DNA of 64,000 bases from a virus: IMG/VR virus record IMGVR_UViG_3300047388_000163, positions 3,132 to 67,131 of that record; one strand, 5' to 3'. The notes beneath the pieces were generated by a model, which saw only the letters and a program-made list of their open reading frames with translations, searched no databases and had not been told where the DNA came from. Shown here one piece after another: positions 4,325 to 38,438 of this stretch; the stretch's first letter is position 1, and each line of letters begins with the position of its first letter. The translations under genes and the position numbers were made by a program.

Positions 4325-5515
4325 ATGGGCCACCCTTACGCAGAGCACCGGCAAACGAAAAAAGAACACTCAAGGGTGAGCCACATCACCAAGGGCTACA
4401 AGTCAGGCGGTGCTGTACATGGCGCAAAAGCCATCGGTAAGAAAGCCTTGGCGCTCCACCGTGAAGAACACGCCGAACTGCACGCTGAGGGCGGCAAATC
4501 CAAGCATCGTATGGACCGTCCGAAACGAGCCAAGGGTGGCAAGATCCACCGGGATTCCGGTGGAGATGTCAGCCCGGTCAAGATGACGCCTGATTCTCTG
4601 CTGGCGGAAGCTCAGCGCCGTCATGATCAAGCTGTTCAGCAAGGGCGATCGTCTACCTTGACAGGCCAATTATACAAGTTGCAAGGCGAGAAGCCTTCTC
4701 GGGCCAAGGGCGGCAAGGTCAAGGGCAAGCACGACGCCAAGACGATTATCAATGTGGTATCTGGCGGTCATCCTGCAGGCGGCGCTATCCCCGCTGGCCC
4801 GCCAATGGCTCCCCCAGCCCCGCCGATGGGCATTGTGCCGGCAACTATGGCACCGCCTCCGATGGCCGCGAAGCCGCCCATGATGCCTCCTGGCGCTGGC
4901 GCACCGCCTTCAATGCCGATGAGGGAGAGAGGTGGCAAAATTCACCGGGCTTCCGGCGGCAAGATGCCGTCCGCTGAGGATATCGTTGCTTCCAACAAAA
5001 GAATGGTTCCTTCTGGTGGTATGTCCCCAGAAGAGGCAATGAGGAGAATTGAGGAAGCCACCCAAAAGCCCATGCAAAAAGCCCGCGGCGGCAAGGTCAC
5101 CAAGGGAACGAAGGTTTTCGAAGAAGGCCAGCGCAATGGGACGCCTGTCCAGCATATGCGTGGCAAGGGCGACCTTGAGCAGATGGGGCGCGGGAAACAA
5201 GTTACATTCGAATCGGGTGGCCGCGTTCGGTCGTTTTATGCCAAGGGCGGCTCTGTGAAGAACCATACCGATCCCGGCGTGTCCGATCGGTTGCACATGG
5301 GGGAGAGGTTCAAGGCATCGCCCATGGAAATACGCGGACAGGATTCGAACACGACGAATGATCCGACGATTGGTAAGCCAAATCGCGCTCGGGGTGGAAT
5401 GTGCCGGGCCAATGGCGGAATGGCTGACAAGGTGGCGGCCGCAACAAAATTGCCGGGCGGTTCCGGCGGCGGCGAGGCCCGTTTAGCCAAGGCGCATCGT
5501 GAGGCGCGGCGCTGA
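4325..5515 (+). CDS. basic low-complexity putative internal virion protein with 11 xAxGG-type motifs
   Basis: AGGAG RBS; YKSGG, RAKGG, RDSGG, RAKGG, RERGG, RASGG, KARGG, FESGG, YAKGG, RARGG, RANGG; Pro/Met-rich linker. Confidence 0.75.
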   Translation: MGHPYAEHRQTKKEHSRVSHITKGYKSGGAVHGAKAIGKKALALHREEHAELHAEGGKSKHRMDRPKRAKGGKIHRDSGGDVSPVKMTPDSLLAEAQRRHDQAVQQGRSSTLTGQLYKLQGEKPSRAKGGKVKGKHDAKTIINVVSGGHPAGGAIPAGPPMAPPAPPMGIVPATMAPPPMAAKPPMMPPGAGAPPSMPMRERGGKIHRASGGKMPSAEDIVASNKRMVPSGGMSPEEAMRRIEEATQKPMQKARGGKVTKGTKVFEEGQRNGTPVQHMRGKGDLEQMGRGKQVTFESGGRVRSFYAKGGSVKNHTDPGVSDRLHMGERFKASPMEIRGQDSNTTNDPTIGKPNRARGGMCRANGGMADKVAAATKLPGGSGGGEARLAKAHREARR

Positions 5516-5745
5516 TGGCTGTGACCCACCATCCACATGGCTCTGTGGTTACATTTGAGAAGGAAGACCACCCCAATCTCGCCCGCAATCTTGAGCGGGA
5601 GCTGCAGGCAGCCAAGGCGGCTTATATTGAGGGCCTGACTGCCTCGAAAGACTGGGGCGATTTCCAGAAGCGGCGGGGGCAGGTCGAAGGTATTGATCTG
5701 GCCATTTCCCTTTGCCAAGAGGCGCGAAAGAAGCTAGACGCATAA
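5515..5745 (+). CDS. conserved small head-module protein
   Basis: KDWGDFQKRRGQVEGI motif, as in small genes found between portal and GroES in this phage type. Confidence 0.65.
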   Translation: MAVTHHPHGSVVTFEKEDHPNLARNLERELQAAKAAYIEGLTASKDWGDFQKRRGQVEGIDLAISLCQEARKKLDA

Positions 5746-5782
5746 ACCGTGCCAGCATGGCACATAACGGGATGCATCCCAT

Positions 5783-6451
5783 ATGGTTCGAAGACTGATT
5801 AAGAAGCATGCCATACCTGCGCGCAAGTCTAAGCGTGGTGGCAAGGTAAATCCTCCAATTTTTCGCAAACATGTTCCGCAAGTTTTTGGCGAAGAAGAAG
5901 CCAAGATATTCGATATTCCCAAGCCTCCGATCGGTCTGGCTTACCAGTGGGTTCTCGCCGAGCATGTGAGGAAGTATCCGGGCTGGGTTCAGGTGCCGTT
6001 TGGACGCCATGTTCACGAGATGCCGCCAGACACCAATGATGATGGCGCGATCGTCTATCTGGGCAACATCTTGGTACAGCGAGAGCAGAGCTTGGTACAG
6101 GCCGAGCTAGTATTATCTCAACAGCACGCTCTCAAAAATCTGAAGGATCATCCAGCTTATCCGGGGAAAAAAGAGGGTGGTCCGTTTCGGATTCTATCCG
6201 AATCCTTCATGGTTTCTAGCCATTACGAGCGCGTCACTGGCCCATCAATCGTTGTGGATGTGACCATTCCGCTTCGAATGTCTACGCATTTGCAGGATAC
6301 AGCATCGGCGCTCGGTCTGACGGCGCAAGAATATCTGCAACGCAGCATTTCACTCTATGTCCGGGGTGAAACAGGCGGTTTGCTATTGCCCATTGATGGC
6401 GCAATGGAATTGCATCAAATTTACCTTAACGATCAGATGAGGAATAAATAA
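5783..6451 (+). CDS. head-module protein (YQW...GW.PVP..RH family, paralog 1)
   Basis: PPIGLAYQW, GWVQVPFGRH, GAIVYLGNIL. Confidence 0.65.
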   Translation: MVRRLIKKHAIPARKSKRGGKVNPPIFRKHVPQVFGEEEAKIFDIPKPPIGLAYQWVLAEHVRKYPGWVQVPFGRHVHEMPPDTNDDGAIVYLGNILVQREQSLVQAELVLSQQHALKNLKDHPAYPGKKEGGPFRILSESFMVSSHYERVTGPSIVVDVTIPLRMSTHLQDTASALGLTAQEYLQRSISLYVRGETGGLLLPIDGAMELHQIYLNDQMRNK

Positions 6452-6873
6452 TGGCTCGTTCAAACGCCATCGGCAAAATGCGTGAGATTGCCGACGATAC
6501 CGAGACAGATCCGAAAGCGCTGTTGTTTGCGAAGGTCGGGGATATCCCGAGCGAACTCACCGTGCTGCATTCTCAAGTTCTGGTGGCTGGCTATATCCGG
6601 CCAGGCAAAACCAAAGGCGGGATTTTCCTGACCGATAAGTCGGTTGAGGAAGATCGCTGGCAGGGCAACATCGGGCTTGTGCTGGCGCTCGGGAAGGGCG
6701 CCTTCAAGGATGACGGCGTTGCTCATTTCCACGGCGACAAGCTGAAAGTCGGCGATTGGGTCATGTATACCCCGGCCGATGGGGTGAGCATGTTTATCCG
6801 CGAGGTTCCATGCCGGTTGTTTCAGGACACCCGCATTTTGATGAAGGTCAGCAATCCGGAGATCTATTACTGA
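6451..6873 (+). CDS. groES: phage co-chaperonin GroES-like protein
   Basis: KTKGGIFL, GLVLALGKGAF, LKVGDWVMY, RLFQDTRIL. Confidence 0.85.
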   Translation: MARSNAIGKMREIADDTETDPKALLFAKVGDIPSELTVLHSQVLVAGYIRPGKTKGGIFLTDKSVEEDRWQGNIGLVLALGKGAFKDDGVAHFHGDKLKVGDWVMYTPADGVSMFIREVPCRLFQDTRILMKVSNPEIYY

Positions 6874-7211: not shown

Positions 7212-7213
7212 TC

Positions 7214-8194
7214 ATGGCTGACCTAGACGACGATGCAATTGTGGTAACGCTGCCAGCGGATGGTGATGGCACAATCACCAAGATCGAAGGCGAGACGACG
7301 AAAACGGTCGTTACTGCGGATCCGTTGGAGGATCTGAAAGACCAGTTCACGAAGGCAACCCAGCGGGCGACAGCAGCCGAGATAGCCAGCCAGCAGACAG
7401 CGCGGCGTCTTGAAGAAGTCACTCAAGAGCTGCAGACCACCAAGACTGCGGTAACCGAAAGCCAGCTTGATACGGTGCTGAGCGGCATCCAGGCGGCAAC
7501 GGCTGAGGCAGATGCTGCTGAGAAGGATTATATTGCGGCCCATGAATCCGGCGATGGACCGGCGATGGCGCGGGCGCAACGCAAGATGGCGACCGCTGAG
7601 GCCCACGTACAGCGCCTTAACGAGGCTAAGGGCGACCTTGAGGAAGCCAAGTCCGCAAAGCCCGTCACTCGCGTAGAACGCCGCCCAGAGCCTCGCCAGC
7701 AGCCTACGGATAAGGTAGAGCAGTTCGCCGCGCAGATGTCCCCGCGTAGCGCGGCATGGATCAGGGCTCACCCTGACTGCATTACGGACGACAAGAAGAA
7801 CAAGCGCATGTTGGCGGCGCACAATGATTGCCTTGCGGATGATATTGCGATCGATAGCGACGAGTATTTTGCGCGGATTGAGGCGCGAATCGCTGGCAGC
7901 GTCGCTAGGGTTGATCTGAAAACCGAACCAAAGCCCGACACATCAGGCAAGCGCCCGATCAGCGCGGCGGCATCAGGGGCGAATACAGGTGGCGGAATGA
8001 ATGGAGGCGGGACCGAGGTTAGGCTCACTCAGCGCGAGGTCACTGCGGCCACAGACGGCACGGTCTGCTGGAATTACGATGATCCGAAAGGTAAATTCAA
8101 GAAGGGGGATGCCGTGGGCGTCCAGGAATTCGCCCGCCGCAAGTCAATTATGAAGCGCGAAGGTCTGTATGACCGTGGAATCATAGATTCATGA
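7214..8194 (+). CDS. capsid scaffolding protein
   Basis: Acidic coiled coil, AAWIRAHP, SDEYFARI, VRLTQRE motifs; position before capsid. Confidence 0.7.
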   Translation: MADLDDDAIVVTLPADGDGTITKIEGETTKTVVTADPLEDLKDQFTKATQRATAAEIASQQTARRLEEVTQELQTTKTAVTESQLDTVLSGIQAATAEADAAEKDYIAAHESGDGPAMARAQRKMATAEAHVQRLNEAKGDLEEAKSAKPVTRVERRPEPRQQPTDKVEQFAAQMSPRSAAWIRAHPDCITDDKKNKRMLAAHNDCLADDIAIDSDEYFARIEARIAGSVARVDLKTEPKPDTSGKRPISAAASGANTGGGMNGGGTEVRLTQREVTAATDGTVCWNYDDPKGKFKKGDAVGVQEFARRKSIMKREGLYDRGIIDS

Positions 8195-8427
8195 GCAAAT
8201 CCACTCATCTATTGCGCGGAACTATACAGCACCCAGGGGATAACAATCTCACTGAGAAATCTCTACTTGAGTTTATGGAAACGATCAGACAGCCGTATAA
8301 GCTAACAACGCCGCATCTTGTGGTCACTCAGGAAGGCATCGATAATGTAAAAGCTCTGTGCGCCGAAGATCCTGAATATCGCAAGCGAGTTTTAGCTGAA
8401 TTTCCCCAACTTGAAGGCATCATATGA
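8191..8427 (+). CDS. hypothetical protein
   Basis: ATGA-coupled ORF. Confidence 0.55.
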   Translation: MSKSTHLLRGTIQHPGDNNLTEKSLLEFMETIRQPYKLTTPHLVVTQEGIDNVKALCAEDPEYRKRVLAEFPQLEGII

Positions 8428-9131
8428 AACCCGTTCGCGAGATAGTATCCCGAGAGATCATTGATGACCTATGGGGCGCTGGCTATACGATCCTGCCGCG
8501 CGCTCGTCATCCAGATCCGTTCCATGTGCCAGCTGAGATGGTGCCGCAGAGCAGATCGTATCAGTGGTTCGATCTGAAGCATGACAAGTTTCATTATGAG
8601 CATAATGGATGGGCACCGGTTTCAGCGTCACGTCACGATGGTTATTTTATGCCAGCGGGTTTCATCGGAGATATCGAGGTTAACGGCCTCGGTCTGTTCG
8701 AAAAGCCAAAGTTCGAGGTTGATGCCGAACGAGCTGAGAATACCGCCAAAGCCAAAAAGATGGTTGAGGACTGGGCGAAGAATACTGGCGCGTTGTTTGA
8801 GGGCGAATTCAAGATCGGCAATGAGCGTACCGCGATCGGTGCCACCAAGACGATTGAGGATACAACCAAGATTCCGCGCGAGTTGACGCCATACATTGCG
8901 CAGATATTTGAGGAACGCGACGCACTCTATAACGATCTGGTTGGACGCTGGAATAGTGGTGGCGAACTCACAAATTGGCAGAATGCCATAAAGGTGGCTT
9001 ATGAGCTTCAATTGTCATTTACGCCAGATGCTCCTCTAGGCCCTACGTTGAATCGCTTCATTCTGCCAACTGCCATCGAAAACATCCGCAAACGCATTGC
9101 CGAGGAGGCTACCAGTGGCCAAGCATCTTAA
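8424..9131 (+). CDS. head-module protein (YQW...GW.PV..RH family, paralog 2)
   Basis: PQSRSYQW, NGWAPVSASRH, GDIEVNGLGLFEKP. Confidence 0.7.
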   Translation: MKPVREIVSREIIDDLWGAGYTILPRARHPDPFHVPAEMVPQSRSYQWFDLKHDKFHYEHNGWAPVSASRHDGYFMPAGFIGDIEVNGLGLFEKPKFEVDAERAENTAKAKKMVEDWAKNTGALFEGEFKIGNERTAIGATKTIEDTTKIPRELTPYIAQIFEERDALYNDLVGRWNSGGELTNWQNAIKVAYELQLSFTPDAPLGPTLNRFILPTAIENIRKRIAEEATSGQAS

Positions 9132-9843
9132 TATAGACGACGGAGACGATATTGCGCCGCAGCCTCTTTCGGCCCAGCCAAATCCGGCTCCGTATGGGTA
9201 TCTCAAAGACGGTAAAACCCCTCGTGGAAGGCCAGGTCGCCCAGCGAAAGAACCGCCCGTTACTGTGCCACCGCATGCCGCTCAGGCTGGACCTCCGCTG
9301 CGCCGGAACAACCCTCGCCCCGTGCCACGGGAGCAGCCCCGCGAGATGGCGCGTGAGCCGAGCCGAGGCAATGCCCGCGTGATGGGCCGCGATGGCGAGG
9401 AGCTTGTGCGTATGAGGCCGGAATCTGGCGGGGATCTTTACGAGAAGGTCAAAGCGCCTCCGGGATGGACTTTTCAGTGGAACAGTGTTGCTGCACTCGG
9501 CAAGGAAATGGACGAGATACAGTTGCAGATGTGGGCCAATGGCTGGCGTCCTGTACCTTCGTCACGGTTCCCCGGCATGTACACTGCGCCGGGGTATGAA
9601 GGTCAGATTGTCGTCAAAGGATTGCGCCTTGAGGAACGTCCTGAGACATTGACGCAGGAAGCCCAGTATGAGGATCACATGCGAGCTCAGAAGCAGACGC
9701 GTGATCAGACGGACGCTCTGCGGCTTACACAGGCCAAACTTCCCGGCGCTGAGGTTGGTGCTCGTGGTAACCGTGTAGCTGTAAAAGTTGACCGCAGCTT
9801 CACTGCTGACATTCCCCGGCCCCAGCACATGATTGAGGAGTAG
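9115..9843 (+). CDS. head-module protein (FQW...GW.PVP..RF family, paralog 3)
   Basis: GAGGAGG RBS before GTG; APPGWTFQW, NGWRPVPSSRF, GQIVVKGLRLEERP. Confidence 0.7.
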   Translation: MAKHLNIDDGDDIAPQPLSAQPNPAPYGYLKDGKTPRGRPGRPAKEPPVTVPPHAAQAGPPLRRNNPRPVPREQPREMAREPSRGNARVMGRDGEELVRMRPESGGDLYEKVKAPPGWTFQWNSVAALGKEMDEIQLQMWANGWRPVPSSRFPGMYTAPGYEGQIVVKGLRLEERPETLTQEAQYEDHMRAQKQTRDQTDALRLTQAKLPGAEVGARGNRVAVKVDRSFTADIPRPQHMIEE

Positions 9844-9847
9844 TACA

Positions 9848-10937: not shown

Positions 10938-10941
10938 GAGA

Positions 10942-11304: not shown

Positions 11305-11306
11305 GA

Positions 11307-14407: not shown

Positions 14408-15322
14408 ATGCCCATTGCCTTGGCCAACATTCGATCTGAGCTTCTGCCGGGCCTCTTTGACGTAAGAGGCTCCTATGACATGATTCCGAGACAATGGGAC
14501 AAAGTATTCAAAACCCATAAGTCCGCGATGGCGGTTGAGCGCTCAACGCAGATGGCGTTCGTTGCGCTGCCGTTCCTGAAAGACGAAGGTGCCGCAACTC
14601 AATTCGACAACAATGCCGGTGAGCGCTTTACATGGGCATTCGTGCATATCGAGGTCGCTCTCGGCTACGCGATCACGAGAAAAGCCATCGACGACAATCT
14701 GTACAAGGCGCAGTTCAATCCGACCAATCTCAAGCTTCAGGAAGCGTTTGCGCAGTTCAAGGAAATCCAGGCCGCGAACGTCCTGAACCTCGGCAACGTC
14801 TACAACACGTCGATCATCGGTGACGGCGTTGCTCTGTTCTCCACGGCGCATCCGTTCGACAACGGCACATGGGCCAATACTTCGTCCACGCCGAAGTCGC
14901 TGAACGAAGCCGCCCTCCTTGCCGACATGACCAACGTGCGAACCCAGTTCGTCAATGAACGCGGCCTGCGCATCATGGCCCGAGCTCGCCGACTGATCGT
15001 ACCGCCGAATCTTGAGCAAGTCGCAATTCGTCTGATGAAGACCGAGCTGCGCCCCGGCACCGCAGACAACGATGTCAACGCTATCCTTACGCTATCTGGC
15101 GGCCTCCCCGAGGGTCACCTCGTGATGGACTTCTTCACCAGTAACTTCGCTTGGTTCCTCACGACCAACATCGAGGGACTGATCCATATGCTTCGCATTC
15201 CGTATGAGTCGGACATGTGGATCGATAATATCACGGATAATTTACTTGTGAAAGCGTATGAAAGGTATAGCTTCGGCTATAACGATCCGCGTTGCGCCTG
15301 GGCAGAGTTCGCTACTTCCTGA
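14408..15322 (+). CDS. major capsid protein
   Basis: 304 aa; ELLPGL, ALGYAITRKAIDDNLY, GDGVALFSTAHP, LIVPPNLE, GTADNDVNA, ERYSFGYNDPR; strongly C-ending codons. Confidence 0.9.
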   Translation: MPIALANIRSELLPGLFDVRGSYDMIPRQWDKVFKTHKSAMAVERSTQMAFVALPFLKDEGAATQFDNNAGERFTWAFVHIEVALGYAITRKAIDDNLYKAQFNPTNLKLQEAFAQFKEIQAANVLNLGNVYNTSIIGDGVALFSTAHPFDNGTWANTSSTPKSLNEAALLADMTNVRTQFVNERGLRIMARARRLIVPPNLEQVAIRLMKTELRPGTADNDVNAILTLSGGLPEGHLVMDFFTSNFAWFLTTNIEGLIHMLRIPYESDMWIDNITDNLLVKAYERYSFGYNDPRCAWAEFATS

Positions 15323-15392: not shown

Positions 15393-16535
15393 ATGAGCCG
15401 AGTGAACAAACTGACCCATGAACGCCTTGTTGAATTGCTGGACTTTGATCCAGCAACTGGCGTTTTCACGTGGCTAAAAACTACATCAAATCGAGTGAAG
15501 GTTGGGAGCCGTGCTGGCGTATTTCACAAGCCATCAGGCGGTCGGTATATCGCCATTGACGGCGAAAAATATATGGCGCACTTGCTGGCATGGTTTTACG
15601 TCCATAGCGTTTTTTCTTCGATGGATGTTCGACCGATTGACGGCAACTTCGATAATTGTGCCATCGTAAACCTGAAAGAGGTTCATCGCTCTGAGTTGCA
15701 ACATGCGCGCGGCATGAACCGTAACAATACCAGCGGGTTTCAGGGAGTTAGCGCGGCTCCGCATGACAAGTGGCAAGCCAAGATCACTTGGAAGACGAAG
15801 CAGGTTTCTCTTGGAATGAACTTCGCTAGGGCCGAAGATGCCGCAGATGTGGTCAAGGATGCATATTCTCGTCTGGGCACTGCTGGAAACGCTTCGGAAG
15901 AGGAATTAGTTTTCGAGGCGCTCAGACTTGAAAAACGCCAGCGCGCAGCTTGGGCTCATCTTCTTCGCAACGATGATCCATTCGTTTGGAAAACTTTTGA
16001 AGATTTTTGTCGCGATGTGACCGATGTTCTTGATCATCGCTACTCCATGGCTCCTATTGACGCCGCTAAGCCTATGTCCAAAGACAATTACAAATGGGCG
16101 TCTGAAGGACATGCCAAAACTGGAACGCCTGAAGGGTTTCTTCAATATCGGAGAGAAAATCAAAAGGCCAATTCGGATCACATGCGAAGCCGACGTTTCA
16201 AGAAGGAGTACGGCATCGATTTTGCGGAATACCAGAGAATGCTTCTTGAACAAAAAGGCGTTTGCGCGATATGCGATAGGCCTGAGACCAAGATTGAAAA
16301 CGGTTCTATTCGCATGCTCTCTGTGGACCATAATCATACGACTGGTGCAGTGCGTGGTCTGCTGTGCGGTAACTGCAATATGGCCATCGGCTATGCATGC
16401 GATGATGTGACAGTGCTTCAGAAGGCCATTGGATATTTGCGCAAGCATGCTGGCGTTGATACGGTGCTTCAGTTCGAACCAACTCGCCCCGATCGTGACT
16501 GGCTTCATGTCGCTACTCTTGGATTTGGAACCTAG
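15393..16535 (+). CDS. homing endonuclease: HNH-AP2 region plus endonuclease VII domain
   Basis: LTHERLVELLDFDPATG, AHLLAWFY, NNTSGFQGV; C-terminal YGI...QKGVCAIC...LSVDHNHTTGAVRGLLCGNCN. Confidence 0.85.
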   Translation: MSRVNKLTHERLVELLDFDPATGVFTWLKTTSNRVKVGSRAGVFHKPSGGRYIAIDGEKYMAHLLAWFYVHSVFSSMDVRPIDGNFDNCAIVNLKEVHRSELQHARGMNRNNTSGFQGVSAAPHDKWQAKITWKTKQVSLGMNFARAEDAADVVKDAYSRLGTAGNASEEELVFEALRLEKRQRAAWAHLLRNDDPFVWKTFEDFCRDVTDVLDHRYSMAPIDAAKPMSKDNYKWASEGHAKTGTPEGFLQYRRENQKANSDHMRSRRFKKEYGIDFAEYQRMLLEQKGVCAICDRPETKIENGSIRMLSVDHNHTTGAVRGLLCGNCNMAIGYACDDVTVLQKAIGYLRKHAGVDTVLQFEPTRPDRDWLHVATLGFGT

Positions 16536-17857: not shown

Positions 17858-18238
17858 ATGAGCAGAGCTCGCCATAAAGAGCACCACAGGGCCTCCGGTG
17901 GTGGCATCGGCGGCCGCAAGGGCGAATGGGTCTCAGGTGACCCGGATGTCAAAAAGGAAGCCGAAGGCAAGGAGCCCTATGACGAGGGTGACGAGCGCAA
18001 ACGCGGCGGCAAGGTCAAGAAGAAAAAACATGAGATCCATGCAGAGGGCGAGAAGGCCCGTCATCGGATGGACCGACCGAAGCGGGCTCATGGTGGCCGT
18101 GTAGGCTCTGACAGCAATCCGTTCAGCTCAGCGAAGAATCCATCGAAGGCCGAAGAACCTGACGTGGAAGACCGTCGTGGTTACAAAACTAGTCGCATCA
18201 AGGATGAGCGCGACAACAGCAAGGGTAACCAGAATTGA
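17858..18238 (+). CDS. basic protein with three xxxGG motifs; shares a segment with 4325-5515
   Basis: RASGG, RKRGGKV, HAEGEKARHRMDRPKRAHGGRV. Confidence 0.7.
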   Translation: MSRARHKEHHRASGGGIGGRKGEWVSGDPDVKKEAEGKEPYDEGDERKRGGKVKKKKHEIHAEGEKARHRMDRPKRAHGGRVGSDSNPFSSAKNPSKAEEPDVEDRRGYKTSRIKDERDNSKGNQN

Positions 18239-26884: not shown

Positions 26885-28939
26885 TTGGCTTTTGGCTCAG
26901 TAACGCTCAGGCCTGGAATAAACGTTGAAAGAACGCCAACTCTGCTTGAGGCGGGTTATTCGCAATCTCAATTGATCAGATTTCGTGATTCTCTCGCTCA
27001 GAAGCTAGGCGGCTGGACTCAGTTCTTTGCATCGGCGCTGTCGGGAGTGCCGCGCGATCTCCACGCATGGGCTGATCTGAACGCCACGAATCATTTGCTG
27101 GTAGGAACCACGACTAGTTTGGATGTCATAACCGGAAGCAATCTTCAGGACATCACACCCCAGACATTAAAATCCGATTTTTCTCCGAATTTCACGACGG
27201 TAAACAATACTCCAACCGTTACGATCATTGATCCAAACATTTCAAACGTGACAATCAATGATTCGGTTTTGTTCAATACACCGATTTCAATCGGTGGGTT
27301 GGTTCTGTCTGGGATCTATTCGATTACGTCGGTAGTAGGTGTCCATTCATACACAATCACCGCCAAGAAGAATGCTACTTCCAGCGTCAATAACTCTGGT
27401 ATGGTGCCACTGTTTACGACCGCAAATGGAAGTTCCATCGTCACGGTGGCACTTACCGCTCATGGGATAGCAGCGGCTGGCGTGACGGTCGTGTTTCCGA
27501 TCGCAACGAGTGGAAACAATGTAACCATCTTGGGTGCCTATACCGTCAGCTCGGTAATCGATGTAAATCAATTCACGATCACGGCATCCACCAGGGCGAA
27601 TGCTCCGGGCTCGTTTTCTATGAACGGTGGCAATGCCGAGTTGCTGTATTACATCGCGATAGGACCGCCTCCGATCGGAGTTGGCTACGGTCTCGGCGGC
27701 TATGGTTTAGGTGGATATGGAACAGGCGTTGTCCCACCCAATCAAACTGGCACGGAGATCACCGCGACCGACTATACCTCGGATAACTGGGGACAGATTG
27801 CTCTGGCGTGCCCTGAGAATGGTGGGATCTATTATTGGGATCCGTCTGGCGGGTTCACCAACGCATCGTTAGTAGCTACGGGACCGATATTCAATCGCGG
27901 GGCCTTCGTCTCAACATCCCAACAGATCCTGATTGCGTTTGGATCAACCATTGATGAGACAATCGGCGGCGGCATCGGCATTCAGCAAGATCCCATGCTG
28001 GTGGCATGGTGCGATGTAGGCAACTTCTTCCAATGGCAAGCTTTGACCACGACACAAGCCGGTAACTTCCGCATTCCGATCGGATCCATGTGTGTGGGTG
28101 GAATGGCCGTTTCCAATCAAAACCTGATCTGGACCGACCTTGATCTGTGGGCGATGAACTACATCGGATATCCAAATACGTATGGATTTAACAAAATTGG
28201 GGCCGGTGCTGGACTTGCCTCAAGTCATGCCGCCCAGCAGCTTCGCGGTGGCGTCTATTGGATGGGGAAATCAAACTTCTATTCATATACCGGTGGTGGG
28301 GTTCAGGTGATCCCATGTCCGGTCTGGGATTTTGTGTTTCAGAACCTCAATAATGCATTCATCCACAACGTTCGCGCGATGCCAAATACGCCGTTCAACG
28401 AGGTTGGATGGGCATTCCCGAGCAATGCCAGCGCAAACGGCGAGAACGATTCGTATGTCAAGATGAACATCACCGAGCCGGGGGCACCTTGGGATTACGG
28501 CTTGCTGCCGCGCTCAGCATGGATTGATCAGACGGTGTTGGGACCTCCGATCGGGGCTATCTCAACCGGAATTGTGTATCAACACGAGACGAGCCCAGAT
28601 GCTGCGGGGCAGCCGTTGGTTTGGTCCTACACGACAGGTTATTTCCGCATTGCAGAGGGCGAGAGCTATGCGTTCGTTGATCGGATACAGCCAGATTTCA
28701 AATTTGGTACAAGCGGGGGCGCTCAAACGGCAACTATCCAGATGTCGTTCAATGTGACGAACTACTCGGGTGATCCGCCTACCGTTTACGGGCCATACAC
28801 CGTTACCCAATCAACGGAATTCATCACCACGAGATTTCGCGGCGGCTTGATGAGCATAACCGTTAGCGGATCGGATCTTGGTAGTTTCTCTCGATTGGGC
28901 TATGTTCGCTATCGTTGGCGAGAGGATGGACGGCGATAA
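26885..28939 (+). CDS. tail nozzle / DNA stabilisation protein (P22 gp10-like)
   Basis: 684 aa; LRPGINVERT, IRFRD..AQKLGGW, DPMLVAWCD, IWTD, VYWMG, IPCPVWDFVF, RSAWID, terminal DGRR. Confidence 0.8.
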   Translation: MAFGSVTLRPGINVERTPTLLEAGYSQSQLIRFRDSLAQKLGGWTQFFASALSGVPRDLHAWADLNATNHLLVGTTTSLDVITGSNLQDITPQTLKSDFSPNFTTVNNTPTVTIIDPNISNVTINDSVLFNTPISIGGLVLSGIYSITSVVGVHSYTITAKKNATSSVNNSGMVPLFTTANGSSIVTVALTAHGIAAAGVTVVFPIATSGNNVTILGAYTVSSVIDVNQFTITASTRANAPGSFSMNGGNAELLYYIAIGPPPIGVGYGLGGYGLGGYGTGVVPPNQTGTEITATDYTSDNWGQIALACPENGGIYYWDPSGGFTNASLVATGPIFNRGAFVSTSQQILIAFGSTIDETIGGGIGIQQDPMLVAWCDVGNFFQWQALTTTQAGNFRIPIGSMCVGGMAVSNQNLIWTDLDLWAMNYIGYPNTYGFNKIGAGAGLASSHAAQQLRGGVYWMGKSNFYSYTGGGVQVIPCPVWDFVFQNLNNAFIHNVRAMPNTPFNEVGWAFPSNASANGENDSYVKMNITEPGAPWDYGLLPRSAWIDQTVLGPPIGAISTGIVYQHETSPDAAGQPLVWSYTTGYFRIAEGESYAFVDRIQPDFKFGTSGGAQTATIQMSFNVTNYSGDPPTVYGPYTVTQSTEFITTRFRGGLMSITVSGSDLGSFSRLGYVRYRWREDGRR

Positions 28940-29197: not shown

Positions 29198-29707
29198 ATG
29201 CCCCTGATCAAATCAGCCTCTAAGGCCGCGATTGGTAAAAACATTGAGGAGATGCAGGCTTCAGGACATCCACATGATCAGGCTGTGGCCGCTGCGCTTG
29301 AGACTGCGCGCCGCGCCAAGCGGGCCAAGGGTGGAAAGGTGCATGTTGGGCCTGTTATCGGAGATACAGGTGGAAGGGCTGATAAGGTTGATGCTTCAGT
29401 GCCTGACGGAACCTACGTCATACCAAGTCAGGCTGTTAGCCATTTAGGTGAAAACAACACAATGGCTGGCATGAAAGTTCTACAGAAGATGTTTCCTCTC
29501 AGCGCACCCAAAAAAGCTAGAATGGCAAGCGGCGGCGTTCCGGTTGCAATAGCTGACGGTGAATTTTGCGTGGCCCCTTCCGATGTGAAAAGAATAGGAG
29601 GCGGTGATATAGACTATGGCCACAAGATTCTAGACGAATGGGTCATGCAACTCAAAGCGGATCACATCAAAACACTTCAGGGTCTAGAACCGCCAGCACG
29701 AGATTGA
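29198..29707 (+). CDS. xAxGG-motif protein with duplicated DG(E/T)(F/Y)V module
   Basis: MPLIKSASKAAIGKNI...QAVAAAL leader, RAKGG, GPVIGDTGGRADKV...DGTYVIP, MASGG, ADGEFCV. Confidence 0.7.
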   Translation: MPLIKSASKAAIGKNIEEMQASGHPHDQAVAAALETARRAKRAKGGKVHVGPVIGDTGGRADKVDASVPDGTYVIPSQAVSHLGENNTMAGMKVLQKMFPLSAPKKARMASGGVPVAIADGEFCVAPSDVKRIGGGDIDYGHKILDEWVMQLKADHIKTLQGLEPPARD

Positions 29708-31375: not shown

Positions 31376-31407
31376 CATTTCCCTACCTGCTATAAGGACG
31401 GTTCCTT

Positions 31408-34400
31408 ATGTGTGGGAAGGGAAGCAATACCACAACCAGTGCTAGCACAACCTCAGCCGCTCCTCAGGCAACCTCAGCCTATCAAGCCCTTCTTGATCGC
31501 GCTCAGGGCGTAGCAGCTACCCCTTACCAAGCCTACACAGGCGAACTAACCGCTCCGATCAATTCCCAGCAGCAGGCCGGTATATCGGGCATCAACGCGG
31601 CTTCTGGACAGGCTCAGCCAGCAATCAATCAGGCGCTTGGCTTGGCGGCGGGCGCTGCTAATCCGCTCACAGCCGCACAGATCCAGCAGTACCAGAACCC
31701 CTATACGCAGAACGTCATTGATGCGACGCAGGCGCAATTCAACAATCAGAATGCGCAACAGCAGCAGCAATTGACAGGGAACGCCATTTCCCAAGGCGCG
31801 CTGGGTGGCAATCGTGTTGGGGTGGCACAGGCCAACCTTGCGGGACAGGAATCGCTTGCTCAGGCTCCAGTTATCGCGGGGCTATACAGCAATTCATATC
31901 AGCAGGGATTGGCGGCGGCTGGGCAGCAATTCCAGCAGAATCCCCTGGCTGCGGCTGGATCGATCGCCAACTTCGGACTCGCGGGGCAAAATGCGGCTTT
32001 GACAGGCGCTGGAGCTCAGCTCGGGGCGGGCACTGTACAGCAGCAGACACAACAGCAGATCGATGCCGCGAATCAGGCGCAATACAATCAGCAGCAGGCC
32101 TATCCGTATCAGCAGACCCAATGGCTGGCTGGGCTTGATACCGGGGTGGGGCCTGGTTTGGGCTCCAGTTCAACCGGTCAGACGACCGCGCCTGCTCCGA
32201 ACCAGTTTTCCCAATATGCTGGGCTTGGGTTAGCGGCGGCTTCGTTCCTAGCCCGCGGTGGTCGGGTCAGCCTTGGAGATGTCCAGCATTTTGACGGCGG
32301 TGGTGTAGCCAAGTCACCTTGGGGCAATGCGCCGTCATGGATACCCCAGATCACCCTTGGGAATGCCGCACCTCATACCGGCAGCGCTCCGGGGGCGCCG
32401 AGCAATACGGCTCCGACGTTCGATTACAGCAAGATCATTGCGGCCAATAATAAGGATTCCAACGGGCTGTTGAGCGGCCCGTCATATGGCGGCGGTAACG
32501 TCTTCACCGATGCATATGGTGGTTCCAGCTCTAGTCCATTGGAAGGATTGAGCGCTGCGGATTATGGCGAGGGATTCGCCCGTGGAGGTGTGGCTGGATA
32601 CGCCGATGGCGGTGCCACTTTCAACGAACGTTTTTCTGGTAACCCTAATCCAAGTTCATGGGACTATTTCAAAGCAGGGGCCAAGGATTTCGCCTCGGAT
32701 GTTGGAAAGGTATTCAGTGGAGATACGAGCGGAACCACGTTCGATAATAGACGAGCCCTAATCAAGGGACGTAACGGCTACGCCGATGGTGGCGCACCCG
32801 ACGATCCATTTGGGGACCAAAACAGGGCAATTGCGTATGATATGCTGCGTAAGGGTCAAGGCATTCAAACTCCGGTTGCGGAAACGCCAAACCAAGGCGT
32901 TGCTGCGGCGCCGGTATGGAACCCGGATCAGCCGTATCGGATGCCGGACCAAGCCGCAGTGGACGACTGGCGCGCAGGCAACCCATTGCCGGGCTCTGGG
33001 GTGGCTCCTGCTGCGTCTAGCGATGATGACGAGCCTTTGCCGCCTGAGATCACGGGCAAGCCCAGCGGGGCTCCTGCTGGCGTTGGTGGGGCTGATAGTG
33101 CGGCCATGTCTTTTGCGCCGGGTGTTGGATCTGCGGCACCGACAACCAATCCGATGGGGGCGACTTGGCAGCCAACTAGCCAACAGGCCCCTGATAACGG
33201 CGGCGGTCTGGGATTGTTCAATATGTCGCACAATGCTCGTTCTGGATTGCTGGCCGCAGGGCTTGGCATGCTGGCGTCTCGATCGCCGAATCTAGGAAAT
33301 GCGATCGGCGAAGGTGGTCTAGCGGGGATGTCCGCCTATGGCGCTGGCGAGGAACGCGACCGGAAGGTGGCTGAGGAAGCCGCAAAGCTATCCCGCGAGG
33401 CTCAGCAGCATGCGGAGGAAATGAAATATAAATATGATACTCTTGGAGAAAATATCCGAAGCCACAAGGCCAATGAAGAAAAGGAATACAAACCATCTTG
33501 GAGCGTCATCAGTGAGGCTGTTGATCCAGATACTGGTTTGGCAAAAAAGACCTATGGATGGGTGGATCCGAACAAAAAGGTAATCACGGATTCGTCTGGG
33601 AAGCCGATCGCGGCCAGCACATCACCGACACCACCTTCTACTGCGCCGAAAGATGCCAATCCTGATGCGACAGGCGATGAATTTCTAAAGAGCGTGCCAC
33701 CGGCCAGGGCCGCAAGGGCAAAGATGATCGGCGATTATGAGGAAAGCCCAGCCGATCTGCCTACACGTGGTGGCGTGAGAGCGGCTGCGGTTGCTGATGC
33801 CAAACGGTACAACAAGGACTTCAACGAACAGAACTATGCGGCATCACAGCGCGCGTACACTAATTTCGTGGCGGGACCTGAGGCTAGAACGGTTCGCTCA
33901 TTGAATGTGGCCACAGATCACCTCGATACGCTAAGGCAGGCCGCAGCCGCCCTGAAGAATGGTCAAATTCCTGTACTGAATTCCATAGTGAATAAATATC
34001 GGGAAGCCACTGGTTCGCCGCTGACCACAGATTTCGATTCCATCAAGCAGGCGGTGAGCTCTGAAATAGCCAAGACCATCGTGGGCGGCCAAACTGCGCT
34101 TCAAGATCGTGATGAAATGTCCAACAGAGCGCGCAATGCAGATTCTTCAGAGCAGCTTTTTGGCATTTTCGATCAATTCACCAAACTGATGGGCGGCCAG
34201 ATGAAGGGCCTCCGTCAGCAATATGAGGCTGGGACCTATAGGAAGGATTTCGATCGGTATCTGTTGCCATCCACAAAAGCGGCAATTGACGCTGTTTCAA
34301 AGGATGTGCAGCCAACTTATGAGAAACCGAAGGCACCGGATGCAGCGGTTGCAAAGCTGAAAGCTAACCCTGAATTGGCTCCGGCATTCGATCAGAAATA

Positions 34401-34437
34401 CGGTGTAGGCGCATCACGTCAATATTTAGGCCAGTAA
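31408..34437 (+). CDS. DNA ejection / internal virion protein with xAxGG motifs
   Basis: MCGKGS.TTT N-terminus, Q/A-rich pilot-protein region (YQNPYTQNV, GALGGNR); LARGG, FDGGG, FARGG, YADGG twice. Confidence 0.75.
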   Translation: MCGKGSNTTTSASTTSAAPQATSAYQALLDRAQGVAATPYQAYTGELTAPINSQQQAGISGINAASGQAQPAINQALGLAAGAANPLTAAQIQQYQNPYTQNVIDATQAQFNNQNAQQQQQLTGNAISQGALGGNRVGVAQANLAGQESLAQAPVIAGLYSNSYQQGLAAAGQQFQQNPLAAAGSIANFGLAGQNAALTGAGAQLGAGTVQQQTQQQIDAANQAQYNQQQAYPYQQTQWLAGLDTGVGPGLGSSSTGQTTAPAPNQFSQYAGLGLAAASFLARGGRVSLGDVQHFDGGGVAKSPWGNAPSWIPQITLGNAAPHTGSAPGAPSNTAPTFDYSKIIAANNKDSNGLLSGPSYGGGNVFTDAYGGSSSSPLEGLSAADYGEGFARGGVAGYADGGATFNERFSGNPNPSSWDYFKAGAKDFASDVGKVFSGDTSGTTFDNRRALIKGRNGYADGGAPDDPFGDQNRAIAYDMLRKGQGIQTPVAETPNQGVAAAPVWNPDQPYRMPDQAAVDDWRAGNPLPGSGVAPAASSDDDEPLPPEITGKPSGAPAGVGGADSAAMSFAPGVGSAAPTTNPMGATWQPTSQQAPDNGGGLGLFNMSHNARSGLLAAGLGMLASRSPNLGNAIGEGGLAGMSAYGAGEERDRKVAEEAAKLSREAQQHAEEMKYKYDTLGENIRSHKANEEKEYKPSWSVISEAVDPDTGLAKKTYGWVDPNKKVITDSSGKPIAASTSPTPPSTAPKDANPDATGDEFLKSVPPARAARAKMIGDYEESPADLPTRGGVRAAAVADAKRYNKDFNEQNYAASQRAYTNFVAGPEARTVRSLNVATDHLDTLRQAAAALKNGQIPVLNSIVNKYREATGSPLTTDFDSIKQAVSSEIAKTIVGGQTALQDRDEMSNRARNADSSEQLFGIFDQFTKLMGGQMKGLRQQYEAGTYRKDFDRYLLPSTKAAIDAVSKDVQPTYEKPKAPDAAVAKLKANPELAPAFDQKYGVGASRQYLGQ

Positions 34438-37400
34438 TGAAGCATCATCCACAGAGCACGGCAGCAGAACGGTTCAAGCGGTTGATCGCTTACGATCCTA
34501 TGTCTGGTCTCCATCGTGGAAAACGTGCTGATGGTGGCCGCGTAAACATGGGAGAAGTGAATACCAATCCGACCGAAGGCCAGAAGCTAGCAGGTAACTA
34601 TCGCAAGGGTCATACTAGAATCCATGGTTTGGATATTTCAATCGAAAATCCAAGAGGTTCAATTCGCACTGCAAAAGATGGAAGTTGGAAAGTGCGGATG
34701 CCCTGTGCATATGGGTACATCAGAGGAACAGAAGGCTCAGACGGTGATCATGTTGACTGCTACCTTGGGCCTCATTTGAAATCACCGCATGTGTTTGTAA
34801 TTGACCAGAATGATTTGCGCACTGGCAAGCACGATGAACACAAGTGCATGATTGGATTTGGCAGCAAGACACAAGCCAAGGAGGCCTATCATCAGGCATT
34901 TTCGGATGGCAAAGGCAAAGATAGGATTGGGCATATTGAGACGCTAAGCGTTCCGATGTTCAAGCTTTGGCTCTCTCATGGCAACACCAAGAAGCCCATC
35001 AAGCGCGCTTCTGGCGGTAGTGTTCGCAAACCGGGATCAACCTATAATACTGAGCTAAGCCCATTGGATGAAATGGCTTACCGCCAATGGGTAAAGGACA
35101 ACAATGTCCCGACAAATCCTGATGCTACAGCGGTGCAGGATTATGACATGCGTGGATTTTACCAAGGTCTGCAGCAACAGAACCCGCGCGCTCAATCGGC
35201 AATAGATCCAAACGATAGTCAGATGCATTACCCTGATTATTGGAAAACACCGATTCATCAGACATTTTCCAATGAAAGCCAGTGGGCACCGGCTAACGCA
35301 CCGTCATGGACCGATGACGATAAGTTGGTTCAGCCCAACGGAAGGGTGGTGTTTGATGACAGAAATAAGCCATCTGATGCCGCGCAATTACTAACAGTTC
35401 CAAGGGCCGGCGGCGGCAATGTTCGAAAGCCTCGGTTTGCTGATTTCCGCCGATCGGAAAACATTGAGGATCGGCGCAATGATAATTCTCCTGTCGAAAA
35501 TAAACCTTGGGGCTTTGATGCAGAACCATGGGCAAGTGAACAAATTGCCGCTACTAGCGATTATAACCCATTGTCGGAAGGATTAGGAATCGGAGACATA
35601 TATTACACTCGCAATCAAAGAGCTGATGGCGGTCGGGTCCATATGGCAGATGGTGGCACTCCGAATCCGTTCGATGATTTCGATAACCAGCATGCCAGCA
35701 CTCATGCGTCTAATCCATTTGATGATTTCGACACGCCGGCGAAAACAGCACCATCCGGCGGAATTGCCTCATATCTGCCAAAGGCAATAACGGATGTCCC
35801 GCATGAAATGTATCAGGCTGGTGCCGAGCAGATTGGGAATATCAAAAACGCGTGGAATGAACGGCATGCAAGACACGAGGCTCAGGCAATCAAGGATAGC
35901 GGTCCTAATGCATCGTTCTTTGATCCGGGAGCAATGGTTAATTCCCTGAAGGATGTGGCCGACACCGGAAAGATGGTTCTAGGCGCAGCTTCAATCATTC
36001 CTTCAACCTTGATTGCAGGTCCTGCAAGATCATTGATAGGCCATCCCTTGGCCGATGCTGAGCATTTGGTTGGATCAATCATCAATCCCCAACAGGCTGC
36101 TAAGGATAACCCTGAGCAGATGTATCAGACTGCGAAGGGTGACGTAGATACGGCGCTATCTGCCGTCCGACCGCGTGGCCCTATGGTCAAAGCTCCGTCT
36201 GTGCCTGGCACTATAGCGGGGCCGCATGAGATCCCGGCCGATGCACCGTCATATCAGCATCCGAGCCAAATTCCCGCGCCTCCCCCGCCGGAATCCGTAG
36301 CCAATACTCAGGCAGCAGATGAGTTCGGCATCAAGCTGTCGCGAGGGCAGGCAACTGGGGATCTGGATACGATCCGCTATGAAGACATGGCTGCGCGCGG
36401 TGCCTATGGAAAGGATCTCCAAGACAAAGCGGTGCCATTCTTTGAGAAGCAATTCCAAGACACCCAAGCTGCTGGTCATGCAGTAGGCCAGCAGACGGCC
36501 AGAACGGCACCTGTAGCTGATACGCCTTCTGACGCAGCCTCCGCTGTTGGATCTGAGGTAGCCGATCGTGCGGCCCGCGCTAGGGCACTACAGGCCCAGA
36601 CAGAACAACAGGCGGCGACCGAAGCGGAGTCACAACGCGGCATTCTGTCAGATCAGAACCGAGCTCTGAGCGATGCCCTGCGAGGCAGTTCACTCCCGAT
36701 TGCCAATCCAACCGAGGCGGGGGAAGTAGTTGGCGCTAATGTGCGCCAAGCTGCGGCAGCAAATCGCGCGGAGTTTCAGGCTCGATACCGAGAATTTGGG
36801 GAGTTGCCCGGCGAATTTCGTGTGGATGCTGTGCGCGGTTTGGGAACGCGTGTCCGTAATGAAATTGGCGGGGGCGATAATCCGATTATCATTGATGACC
36901 AGCTTACGCCGGCAGCATCGCGGGCTATCCAGGCGTTGGATGAAATGTCTGTGCCGCGCATTCAGAATCGTGCCAGTCCCAATGCGGCACCAAATCCTGA
37001 TGAAATTGCGGGCGTAAATCTCCGCGGCATTGATCAGATGCGCAAGAAACTGGTGGCCTATTATCAGGCAGCCAGGACCAATCCGACCGATGCACGAGCC
37101 GTTCAGGGAATCATTCATGGTTTCGATGGCCAGATTGAGCGCGCCATTACGGAAGGGCTGTTCTCTGGCGATCCAAGGGCGCTGGAGGCTCTGCAGGAAG
37201 CACGGGCGTCCTATGCCAGGTATCGGCGGACATTCAGCCCTCAAGGCGCTGGCGACGACGTAGGCACCGCCATGCGCCGAATTGTGGAGCGCAATGCCAC
37301 GCCGGAAGAAACCGCCAACATGATCATTGGATCTGGGAAAATAGGTAACTCAGGTTTGCCGGTTCGGATAGCCGATCGGCTTGAACAGGTACTAGGGGCT

Positions 37401-38438
37401 GATTCGGATAGTTGGAGCGCGCTGAGACAAGCCATGTGGCAGAAGGCGTCACAGGTTCGTAATTCCGCAGGGGTTGTGGATCCGGCCAAGTCTGCGCAGA
37501 GCATCAACGATTTTACTGGAACGACACTCGCGCAGCGCATGTTTACCGCTCAGGAACGCGCGGCCATGCGGGCTCATGCCCAAGGCATCCAGGATCTGGA
37601 CAGGAACATTGAGCAGCTACCGGCCACCCGGACCGCGGAGCGCACACGACAAGCCTATCAGGATACGTTTGGCGGGGCTGATCTTGGCGGCACGCCGAAG
37701 GCTGTATTTCAGAAAATGGTGCAGGGAACTGCCACACCAGAAGAAATAGCCAACGGTGTTTTCAAGGTAATCGGTGCCGGAAATCCTGGCCATGTTACAC
37801 GGGCTTTGCAGGCTATTGAACGAATTGTTGGGCCGAATAGCGACGCCATGGGCGCGATTCGCCAAGGGGTGTGGCAAAAGCTCACTCAGGCAGCCGCTGG
37901 CAAGGATCAGCCAGGAGCTCAAAAGGCCATGCAGGCAATCAATGAATTCCTAAATGGATCTGGAAAGACGATTGCCGAACAACTTTATTCGCCCTCTGAA
38001 TTGGCTCTTATGGATCGATACCAGAAAGCCTTGAAGCTTACTATCATCCCGAAATATGCTAGAACAAATTCCGATACGGCTCCGGCTTTGTTGGCTGCGG
38101 TGCGTAAATACGCAGGAATGGTCGGATCTGCTCTTGGGGTTGTCGGGCTTGGAGGAGCAGAGGGCGGATTGTCGGGGTATGCGGTTTCCAAGCTGTTGGA
38201 CAAAGGCGGGGAGAAGTTTCTAGCGGCTCGTCAATCCAAGAAGTTGGAAAATTCGCTCAACAATGTTGTACCGCCGCCGGTTAAGCCCGTCACTCCACCG
38301 TCACCGAAATCAGCGCGTATTCTTCCGTTGAGTGTTCAGCCGGGATATAGAGGTCCTGGACTTGGTAGTCTGCAAGGCCCCGTGCCAGCAGATGCCGATG
38401 AGAAAAAGAAACGCCCCGGTGGGATAGGGCACGCATAA
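34437..38438 (+). CDS. large ejection protein with inorganic pyrophosphatase-like domain
   Basis: 1333 aa; PTEGQKLAGNYRKGH, ISIENPRGS, YGYIRGTEGSDGDHVD, VIDQ, DEHKCMIGF match the polyvalent-protein InPase domain; NPFDDFD twice; long helical C-terminus. Confidence 0.8.
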   Translation: MKHHPQSTAAERFKRLIAYDPMSGLHRGKRADGGRVNMGEVNTNPTEGQKLAGNYRKGHTRIHGLDISIENPRGSIRTAKDGSWKVRMPCAYGYIRGTEGSDGDHVDCYLGPHLKSPHVFVIDQNDLRTGKHDEHKCMIGFGSKTQAKEAYHQAFSDGKGKDRIGHIETLSVPMFKLWLSHGNTKKPIKRASGGSVRKPGSTYNTELSPLDEMAYRQWVKDNNVPTNPDATAVQDYDMRGFYQGLQQQNPRAQSAIDPNDSQMHYPDYWKTPIHQTFSNESQWAPANAPSWTDDDKLVQPNGRVVFDDRNKPSDAAQLLTVPRAGGGNVRKPRFADFRRSENIEDRRNDNSPVENKPWGFDAEPWASEQIAATSDYNPLSEGLGIGDIYYTRNQRADGGRVHMADGGTPNPFDDFDNQHASTHASNPFDDFDTPAKTAPSGGIASYLPKAITDVPHEMYQAGAEQIGNIKNAWNERHARHEAQAIKDSGPNASFFDPGAMVNSLKDVADTGKMVLGAASIIPSTLIAGPARSLIGHPLADAEHLVGSIINPQQAAKDNPEQMYQTAKGDVDTALSAVRPRGPMVKAPSVPGTIAGPHEIPADAPSYQHPSQIPAPPPPESVANTQAADEFGIKLSRGQATGDLDTIRYEDMAARGAYGKDLQDKAVPFFEKQFQDTQAAGHAVGQQTARTAPVADTPSDAASAVGSEVADRAARARALQAQTEQQAATEAESQRGILSDQNRALSDALRGSSLPIANPTEAGEVVGANVRQAAAANRAEFQARYREFGELPGEFRVDAVRGLGTRVRNEIGGGDNPIIIDDQLTPAASRAIQALDEMSVPRIQNRASPNAAPNPDEIAGVNLRGIDQMRKKLVAYYQAARTNPTDARAVQGIIHGFDGQIERAITEGLFSGDPRALEALQEARASYARYRRTFSPQGAGDDVGTAMRRIVERNATPEETANMIIGSGKIGNSGLPVRIADRLEQVLGADSDSWSALRQAMWQKASQVRNSAGVVDPAKSAQSINDFTGTTLAQRMFTAQERAAMRAHAQGIQDLDRNIEQLPATRTAERTRQAYQDTFGGADLGGTPKAVFQKMVQGTATPEEIANGVFKVIGAGNPGHVTRALQAIERIVGPNSDAMGAIRQGVWQKLTQAAAGKDQPGAQKAMQAINEFLNGSGKTIAEQLYSPSELALMDRYQKALKLTIIPKYARTNSDTAPALLAAVRKYAGMVGSALGVVGLGGAEGGLSGYAVSKLLDKGGEKFLAARQSKKLENSLNNVVPPPVKPVTPPSPKSARILPLSVQPGYRGPGLGSLQGPVPADADEKKKRPGGIGHA

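Follow-up and report, generated by a model that had tools for sequence, protein, structure and literature searches.

How ejection proteins and anti-defence cargo are selected and loaded in P22-like and other protease-free podophages is poorly understood. The question is raised by a 64,000-nt stretch of viral DNA (hereafter the window) that corresponds to bases 3132–67131 of the IMG/VR record IMGVR_UViG_3300047388_000163, which is 67,131 bp long and rated 100% complete by CheckV. A short motif centred on a Gly-Gly pair recurs in several putative internal virion proteins encoded in the window, and the initial annotation had taken this motif for a protease site and/or a capsid-loading tag. The window belongs to a P22/SU10-like podophage, and its host is probably alphaproteobacterial, as hinted by the presence of an open reading frame (ORF) of the GcrA family. 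We examined where the motif occurs, how it is conserved, and where it lies relative to protein modules in related phages. We conclude that a genuine short linear motif, [R/K/Y/F/M]-A-x-G-G-x-[V/I], is present in disordered leaders, linkers, and tails of the proteins that the phage would carry in its head and eject, and that it is more likely a docking or joining element than a cleavage site.

Enrichment of the Gly-Gly motif in candidate internal virion proteins

The initial annotation had named the following six proteins as carriers of the motif.

4325..5515, plus strand: post-portal multi-motif protein P0001, 396 aa, with 11 motif copies
5783..6451, plus strand: P0002, with a single loose copy (SKRGGKV) near the N-terminus
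17858..18238, plus strand: small basic protein P0003, 126 aa, with 3 motif copies
29198..29707, plus strand: P0004, encoded directly 3' of the nozzle gene, with a phrog_2423 domain and 2 motif copies
31408..34437, plus strand: ejection protein E1, 1,009 aa, with a phrog_4287 N-terminal domain and 5 motifs
34437..38438, plus strand: polyvalent ejection protein E2, 1,333 aa, with an InPase domain (PF18823) and 7 loose motifs

Motif copies were counted in the 99 ORF calls of the window, a set that we picked greedily, using a loose pattern ([RKFYML][ADEKRSNH].GG) and a tight pattern that adds positions +1 and +2 to the loose one. The loose pattern had 30 matches within the 3,267 aa of the six annotated carriers versus 10 within the 16,529 aa of the other 93 ORFs, and the tight pattern had 15 versus 0. 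The tight pattern was found neither in the capsid protein (14408–15322) nor in the adaptor/tail proteins or the nozzle (26885–28939). These counts bear out the annotated view that the motif is common to the internal-protein candidates and absent from the capsid, adaptors, and nozzle.

Residue shuffling within each protein (2,000 times each) revealed that five of the six proteins were individually enriched beyond what their composition predicts. P0001 contained 11 loose copies against a shuffle mean of 1.18, a number reached in 0 of the 2,000 shuffles. The corresponding values were 3 copies for P0003 (mean 0.45; reached in 13 shuffles), 5 for E1 (mean 1.32; 22 shuffles), and 7 for E2, five of which lie within the N-terminal 410 aa (mean 1.40; 1 shuffle). 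P0004, counted as the ORF beginning at 29162, had 3 loose copies, 2 of them good (mean 0.27; 4 shuffles); homologue alignments begin at residue 13 of this ORF, which agrees with the start at 29198 that had been annotated for P0004. The single loose copy in P0002 was not significant (mean 0.16; reached in 296 of 2,000 shuffles), and P0002 was rejected as a member of the motif set, which reduces the six annotated carriers to five.

Other details of the initial annotation were likewise reproduced. All four of the doublets that it quoted (RAKGGKIHRDSGG, RERGGKIHRASGG, FARGGVAGYADGG, and RADGGRVHMADGG) are present in the translations, and the codons differ between copies as it had stated, with a mean identity of 10.1/21 nt over 435 pairs and with Arg encoded by CGA, CGG, CGC, AGG, or AGA. 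The motif is restricted to proteins expected inside the virion, comprising ejection and polyvalent proteins and small basic proteins.

A post-portal protein family composed largely of motif copies

P0001 has a pI of 10.6 and a K+R content of 18%, contains a Pro/Met-rich spacer, and ends in KLPGGSGGGEARLAKAHR. Its ESM Atlas model showed a pLDDT of 0.39 and a pTM of 0.13; on these figures only, P0001 is predicted to be disordered. A single search returned 262 homologues, all of them unnamed and lacking a Pfam domain. A family profile matched representatives of at least 1,005 clusters (50% identity) at E ≤ 1e-3, of 408 at 1e-10, and of 163 at 1e-30.

In alignments of 24 and 121 members of the P0001 family, the Gly-Gly pairs of four motif copies were invariant, as was the Arg before two of these four copies. 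The spacers, including the Pro/Met-rich stretch, were variable and accept inserted extra doublets, and the number of copies per member ranged from 3 to 12. A logo built from 604 distinct windows of the family read R/Y/F/K, A (356/604), x, G, G, R/A/K, and V (425/604). Comparison between P0001 and its G005 orthologue showed 96 synonymous-only codon differences versus 24 amino-acid differences. P0001 is a real, constrained gene. A multi-motif ORF was located directly downstream of the portal gene in 12 of 14 related loci, with none in L005 and L015.

The small protein P0003 (26% K+R) is paralogous to the HAEGxKxxHRMDRPKRAxGGRV segment of P0001 (E = 7.8e-6) and has homologues in G001, G002, G003, and G004.

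A tblastn search of P0001 against 50,697 phage records gave no match. No longer, fused forms of P0001 were found among 7,984 candidates, which is weak evidence, and sequence searches of the PDB with the P0001-family set, E1, and P0004 returned nothing meaningful. Prediction of a complex of the capsid protein, the putative scaffold (7214–8194), and residues 1–160 of P0001 gave a score of 0.00 and a mark of 0.32, values that speak neither for nor against an interaction.

Motif copies at the joints between protein modules

The order of elements in E2 is a leader (aa 1–34), a motif, the InPase domain (PF18823, E = 5.3e-45, aa 48–179), a motif at 190, module B, a motif at 323, module C, a doublet at 395/403, and a large C-terminal body. 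We classed E2 as a polyvalent protein, as it combines InPase and module B in one polypeptide and its gene follows the nozzle and ejection genes. The motifs of E2 lie in regions scored as disordered by composition.

The G004 homologue of E2 aligns to the window protein over aa 1–35 and 323–1333 only and lacks aa 36–322. At the DNA level its junction reads KRADGG directly followed by KARKPRFADF, where the left motif runs into the sequence 3' of the right one; therefore the cassette of InPase and module B sits exactly between two motif copies. The InPase block ends at a motif in G000, G001, and G002. Module B (E2 aa ~195–320) was found as a free-standing ORF of about 140–240 aa in 6 other contigs, and in L062 it precedes InPase, with KKRGGSV in between and KRAEGGRVGYAGGG after. 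A 739-aa post-portal protein of MW202675.1 carries motifs at 48, 214, 288, 409, 552, and 732 that flank GNAT (64–121), Peptidase_M15 (294–386), and ART-PolyVal (569–721) domains; 0 of them fall inside a domain, and the last lies 3 residues before the stop.

E2 matched entries in the PDB searches only via its InPase domain. Residues 60–188 of E2 (window 34437–35000), within this domain, are homologous to the C-terminal domain of the portal of Pseudomonas phage Pa193 (PDB 9b41, gp19; E = 1.5e-36), which is a portal–InPase fusion.

The N-terminal domain of E1 corresponds to phrog_4287, "DNA ejection protein" (E = 2.3e-8, aa 3–286). This homology to a known family, together with the location of the gene after the nozzle, places E1 among P22-type ejection proteins. 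E1 is acidic overall (pI 5.2), and its motifs, at 281, 295, 390/398, and 458, lie between modules. In an alignment of E1 from four genomes (aa 270–480), 9 of 16 GG columns were invariant versus 35 of the remaining 289. The window protein has the motif alone at its first E1 junction, and two relatives have a self-cleaving Peptidase_S74 chaperone module there: G002 (L021:6906–9854, minus strand; PF13884, E = 1.8e-8, aa 280–328) and MW202675.1 (L036:9188–12745, aa 277–327). G002 keeps the motif just downstream of this module.

The E1 homologue of G004 (L025, about 18.7–19.8 kb) is otherwise 93–97% identical and has an in-frame stop in place of Trp (GGVAKSP-stop-GNAPSW), which may reflect a nonsense mutation, readthrough, or an error in sequencing. 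Its division into two ORFs was rejected as a modular split, as the only change is this stop.

P0004 consists of the N-terminal phrog_2423 domain followed by two motifs, each of which precedes an element of the DG(E/T)(F/Y)V(I/V)P type. A longer element, GG...D[SD]IPAxLSDGE[FY]V, trails some motif copies, both in P0004 and at the C-termini of proteins of DSL-LC04, HTVC027P, and Caulobacter RW; because of this trailing element, the arrangement suggests that at least some motif copies belong to a larger binding unit. In its extended form (...D[SD]IPAxLSDGE[FY]V[FI].A..V...), the element is conserved after the Gly-Gly motif in distantly related podophages including MW202675.1, and it occurs twice in P0004.

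Relatives have gained, lost, or rearranged modules at joints that carry the motif, which separates units of cargo that fold independently (InPase, module B, and others). The proposal that unrelated modules are strung together by the motif thus agrees with the module boundaries of both the window and its homologues, and the conservation expected in homologues was found in the invariant GG pairs of the P0001 family as well as in the joints of relatives, which lie at GG.

The same data could be read as a passive joint, in which the motif is a favoured flexible hinge combined with an in-frame recombination scar that permits modules to be shuffled and bead-on-string cargo to unfold and pass through the tail channel without any specific partner. 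The indel and reorder junctions lie exactly at GG, as such a joint would have them, and the motif is found in regions disordered by composition and in a protein with a low-confidence Atlas model. However, the differing codons leave DNA homology too short to drive recombination, the conserved first residue (R/K/Y/F/M), the Ala at −2, and the Val at +2 in the 604 windows exceed what a hinge needs, and a whole protein family is made mostly of motifs. We therefore regard a purely passive joint as quite improbable.

Distribution of the motif in related phages

Five related IMG/VR genomes, all metagenomic contigs with portal identities of 53–97%, were compared with the window. As in the window, the ORFs rich in motif copies encoded the post-portal protein, one small protein located past the capsid region, the homologue of P0004, and both large ejection proteins. 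This syntenic gene set bears the motif in all five genomes and likewise in two more distant phages. Across whole proteomes, [RKFYMLH]AxGGx[VIAM] was counted and set against the mean of 100 within-protein shuffles. Observed versus shuffled counts were 15 versus 1.1 for G000, 11 versus 1.3 for G001, 10 versus 0.9 for both G004 and G005, 6 versus 0.6 for G003, and 5 versus 1.5 for G002. Among further phages, the counts were 8 versus 0.9 for MW202675.1 (first 50 kb), 8 versus 1.1 for DSL-LC04, 3 versus 0.4 for HTVC027P, and 4 versus 1.3 for Caulobacter RW. The T7 proteome showed no enrichment (PhiAxGG, 1 observed versus 1.8 expected), and T7 was rejected as a member of the motif system.

The capsid protein of the window belongs to an exceedingly abundant family, with at least 8,000 homologues scoring at E ≤ 1e-10. 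The best 120 capsid matches listed showed 86–93% identity to the query, many of them on contigs of 60–73 kb, and the capsid was ~91% identical between genomes whose portals were just 53–70% identical. The carrier group is large, given these capsid homologues and the cluster representatives of the P0001 family.

The residues around Gly-Gly also bear on a DNA-binding or DNA-condensing role, in which basic copies would grip the packaged DNA in the manner of the VII/mu peptides of adenovirus or the basic region of T7 gp7.3. K and R are common at −3, −1, and +1 in the clade of the window, these residues make up 18% of P0001 and 26% of P0003, and residues K84/K85 of T7 gp7.3 are described as contacting DNA right after its RAGG (PMC11784390). 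In more distant carriers, however, the motif is neutral or acidic (FAEGGEV, MADGGLV, YADGGFL, and YAVGGVI), and E1 is itself an acidic protein. DNA binding is thus a very unlikely function of the motif.

Docking or cleavage

Starting from what is observed, namely specificity, conservation, disorder, and location at joints, with no recognisable protease, we tentatively interpret the motif as a multivalent docking and joint element of the cargo inside the capsid, for which binding, a partner, and a role in loading are put forward conditionally. Individual copies would engage a site that is repeated within the virion, which may be the portal/core/nozzle, the inner capsid wall, or other copies of the motif, and any module flanked by the motif would thereby be loaded and held. 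The disordered, many-copy P0001 family could then act as a high-valency adaptor or glue, with the ejection and polyvalent proteins as its lower-valency clients. The Gly-Gly pair may in addition provide a flexible hinge for threading cargo, arranged as beads on a string, through the tail channel. Cleavage would not be required.

The initial annotation had placed a protease site beside the loading tag. Under this alternative, polyproteins would be cut after the Gly-Gly pair or close to it, either by an enzyme of the host or by one of the phage that escaped recognition. Such cuts would release modules and chop P0001 into small basic peptides, in the way that adenain processes adenovirus core proteins and gp21 the T4 scaffold core. 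The occurrence of motifs at module joints is in line with cleavage, as is the conserved 34-aa leader at the N-terminus of E2, which is retained with its motif while the next module differs. This leader and motif resemble a T4 capsid-targeting sequence with its cleavage site, and R-A-[K/R]-G-G resembles the ubiquitin tail RLRGG. However, Pfam detected no peptidase family in any of the 99 ORF calls of the window, and PHROGs detected no peptidase in the 24 of the 99 that were searched; both scans were confined to the window, and the remaining 3.1 kb of the record contains one ORF of 576 aa besides shorter ORFs. Tandem motif copies are spaced 8 residues apart, and doublets would release octapeptides. 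Other copies lie 3–4 residues from C-termini (KRPGGIGHA before the stop of E2 and HARGGVAK before that of an MW202675.1 protein), where a cut would release nothing useful. Conservation after Gly-Gly, on the primed side, is as strong as before it, and in G002 the motif is retained just downstream of Peptidase_S74, which already cuts. Because of the 8-residue doublets, the near-C-terminal copies, the strong Val at +2, and the lack of a peptidase, binding fits better than cutting; the protease half of the annotated proposal was therefore not upheld, and we consider a protease site unlikely. The capsid-loading half is a plausible reading.

Several observations weigh against docking. No receptor for the motif was identified, and binding is a property that we infer. 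Pfam is unable to exclude a novel or host protease. The self-cleaving Peptidase_S74 at the same E1 junction in G002 and MW202675.1 implies that separation there is selected in some lineages, and a review (PMC8954989) notes that a host enzyme may have to cleave gp20 of P22; both points favour a protease site. Within E2 alone, the association with boundaries is modest: 3 of 7 loose copies lie ≤12 aa from the end of a homology block, which was equalled in 658 of 20,000 random placements. The proteome of CRP-902 contained 0 motif copies versus 0.7 in shuffles, and that of Pag-Yong1 contained 4 versus 2.5, which was not significant. CRP-902 shares portal, capsid, and GroES-like homologues yet has no motif, and as both of these phages share the three proteins, a receptor in those shared parts is not obvious. 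Because CRP-902, Pag-Yong1, and T7 are not enriched, the motif is a trait of particular clades and not of podophages generally.

A broader form of the docking reading, which we put forward as doubtful, is that a very abundant group of environmental podophages has a general cargo-loading system that uses no protease and for which the motif serves as the address label. In such a system, a P0001-family adaptor and a repeated procapsid site would capture any flanked domain into a multivalent internal network that is later ejected. If this were true, arbitrary proteins could be packaged into phage heads with the motif as a portable tag, and it might likewise serve for loading foreign proteins. A clade-wide cargo signature would allow packaged and injected phage proteins to be predicted at the sequence level and would offer a way to trace the receptor within the procapsid.

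Genome context

The podophage structural module occupies a plus-strand block at 1.8–43 kb. In addition to the motif carriers, the following features were assigned.

1813..4056, plus strand: portal (phrog_1216; PF23899 SU10_portal in one member of a 42-ORF set that includes the portal ORF)
6451..6873: GroES-like protein (PF00166)
7214..8194: putative scaffold, an acidic coiled-coil protein, assigned from its sequence
14408..15322, plus strand: major capsid protein, 304 aa (PF25209 and PF10124 on homologues), with no tight motif
Within the structural block: SU10-type adaptor matches (Pfam)
26885..28939, plus strand: nozzle, a P22 gp10-like "stabilization" protein, with no tight motif

The PF10124 (Mu-like_gpT) match occurred in one member of the ORF set that includes the capsid ORF. 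A free-standing ORF with HNH and endonuclease VII matches (phrog_99 and phrog_2914; 15393–16535) lies immediately after the complete 304-aa capsid gene and before a 421-aa Gly-rich ORF; it probably represents a homing endonuclease that has inserted into the structural module. In the portal–capsid interval, the ORFs at 5783–6451, 8424–9131, and 9097–9843 share, by eye, a C-terminal block (GW.PV...R..G......G.I.V.GL.L.E.P) and look like a paralogous family. A minus-strand block at 43000–54000 appears early or lysogeny-like, with GcrA, RusA, DUF5131, P22_Cro-like, and YdaS-like matches.

Homologues of the GroES-like protein were present in 5 of 5 distant isolates tested (DSL-LC04, CRP-902, HTVC027P, Caulobacter RW, and Pag-Yong1). 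The mobile loop of the window protein reads KTKGGIFL. As this protein is encoded next to P0001 and its loop is somewhat like RAKGGKV, the motif could be imagined as a copy of the GroES mobile loop that recruits the host chaperonin GroEL. However, the register of the Ala differs, the hydrophobic triplet after GG is missing, and CRP-902 has the GroES-like gene without the motif. GroES-loop mimicry was set aside on the register mismatch and on CRP-902, and we give it almost no credence.

Comparison with known systems

That internal virion proteins can share signals is an established concept. Gly-Gly sites of the type (M/L/I)XGG-X, cut by adenain, and GG-X, cut by pS273R of African swine fever virus, are shared by several core proteins, including small basic ones; these are eukaryotic viruses with a clan CE cysteine protease, whereas no clan CE cysteine protease domain was detected in the ORFs of the window. 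The capsid-targeting sequence of T4, cut by gp21, and the prohead-protease sites of phiKZ and SPN3US are short N-terminal signals that load unrelated cargo. They are common to many internal proteins, end in Glu, and depend on a dedicated prohead protease. In contrast, no protease was found here, and motif copies occur within proteins, in tandem, and at C-termini in addition to N-termini. Encapsulin cargo-loading peptides, which are short and contain Gly, fix cargo inside an HK97-fold shell.

No description of the motif was found in the literature searched; supplementary files, which possibly contain virion proteomics, were outside this search. The signature itself, its position at joints, and the dedicated multi-motif family appear to be undescribed.

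The InPase domain has been assigned to packaged phage polyvalent proteins, for which packaging via MuF or portal fusion and processing via a zincin-like MPTase have been proposed (Iyer et al. 2017, PMC5512222). E2 with its InPase domain, the MW202675.1 relatives with ART-PolyVal, M15, and GNAT domains, and the shuffling of modules are all like that system. Unlike it, E2 has neither a MuF/portal fusion nor an MPTase, and Pfam detected none of these in E2 or in the rest of the 99 ORFs. The main text of Iyer et al. 2017 (PMC5512222) has 0 mentions of glycine, linker, or "GG motif".

Phage P1 has 55 DarA–Hdf pairs on its inner capsid wall, as described in PMC12810830. The likeness is that an adaptor fixes cargo to the inner face of an HK97-fold shell; the difference, which holds for encapsulin peptides too, is that there is no sequence similarity and that binding to the shell is here only what we infer.

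The comparison with T7 concerns gp6.7 and gp7.3. The register is A-G-G in T7 versus A-x-G-G here, no homology was found, and the large core proteins of T7 are without the motif. Some likeness in sequence is nevertheless present: gp7.3 reads ...RKKARAGGKKSLSV..., and gp6.7 ends in ...SAFGGKK. According to Zheng et al. 2024 (PMC11784390), the C-terminal loop 84–98 of gp7.3 attaches to two subunits of the nozzle, the rest of this protein is basic and wraps the DNA, and the loops of gp6.7 bridge the portal, gp14, and gp15. As described there, both proteins are small, mostly disordered, basic, and ejected, with short loops that anchor to the portal, core, or nozzle and to the DNA end, and in these respects they are alike to the proteins considered here. 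Docking through the Gly-Gly motif would work like the disordered loops of T7 gp6.7 and gp7.3 or like the DarA–Hdf pairs of P1.

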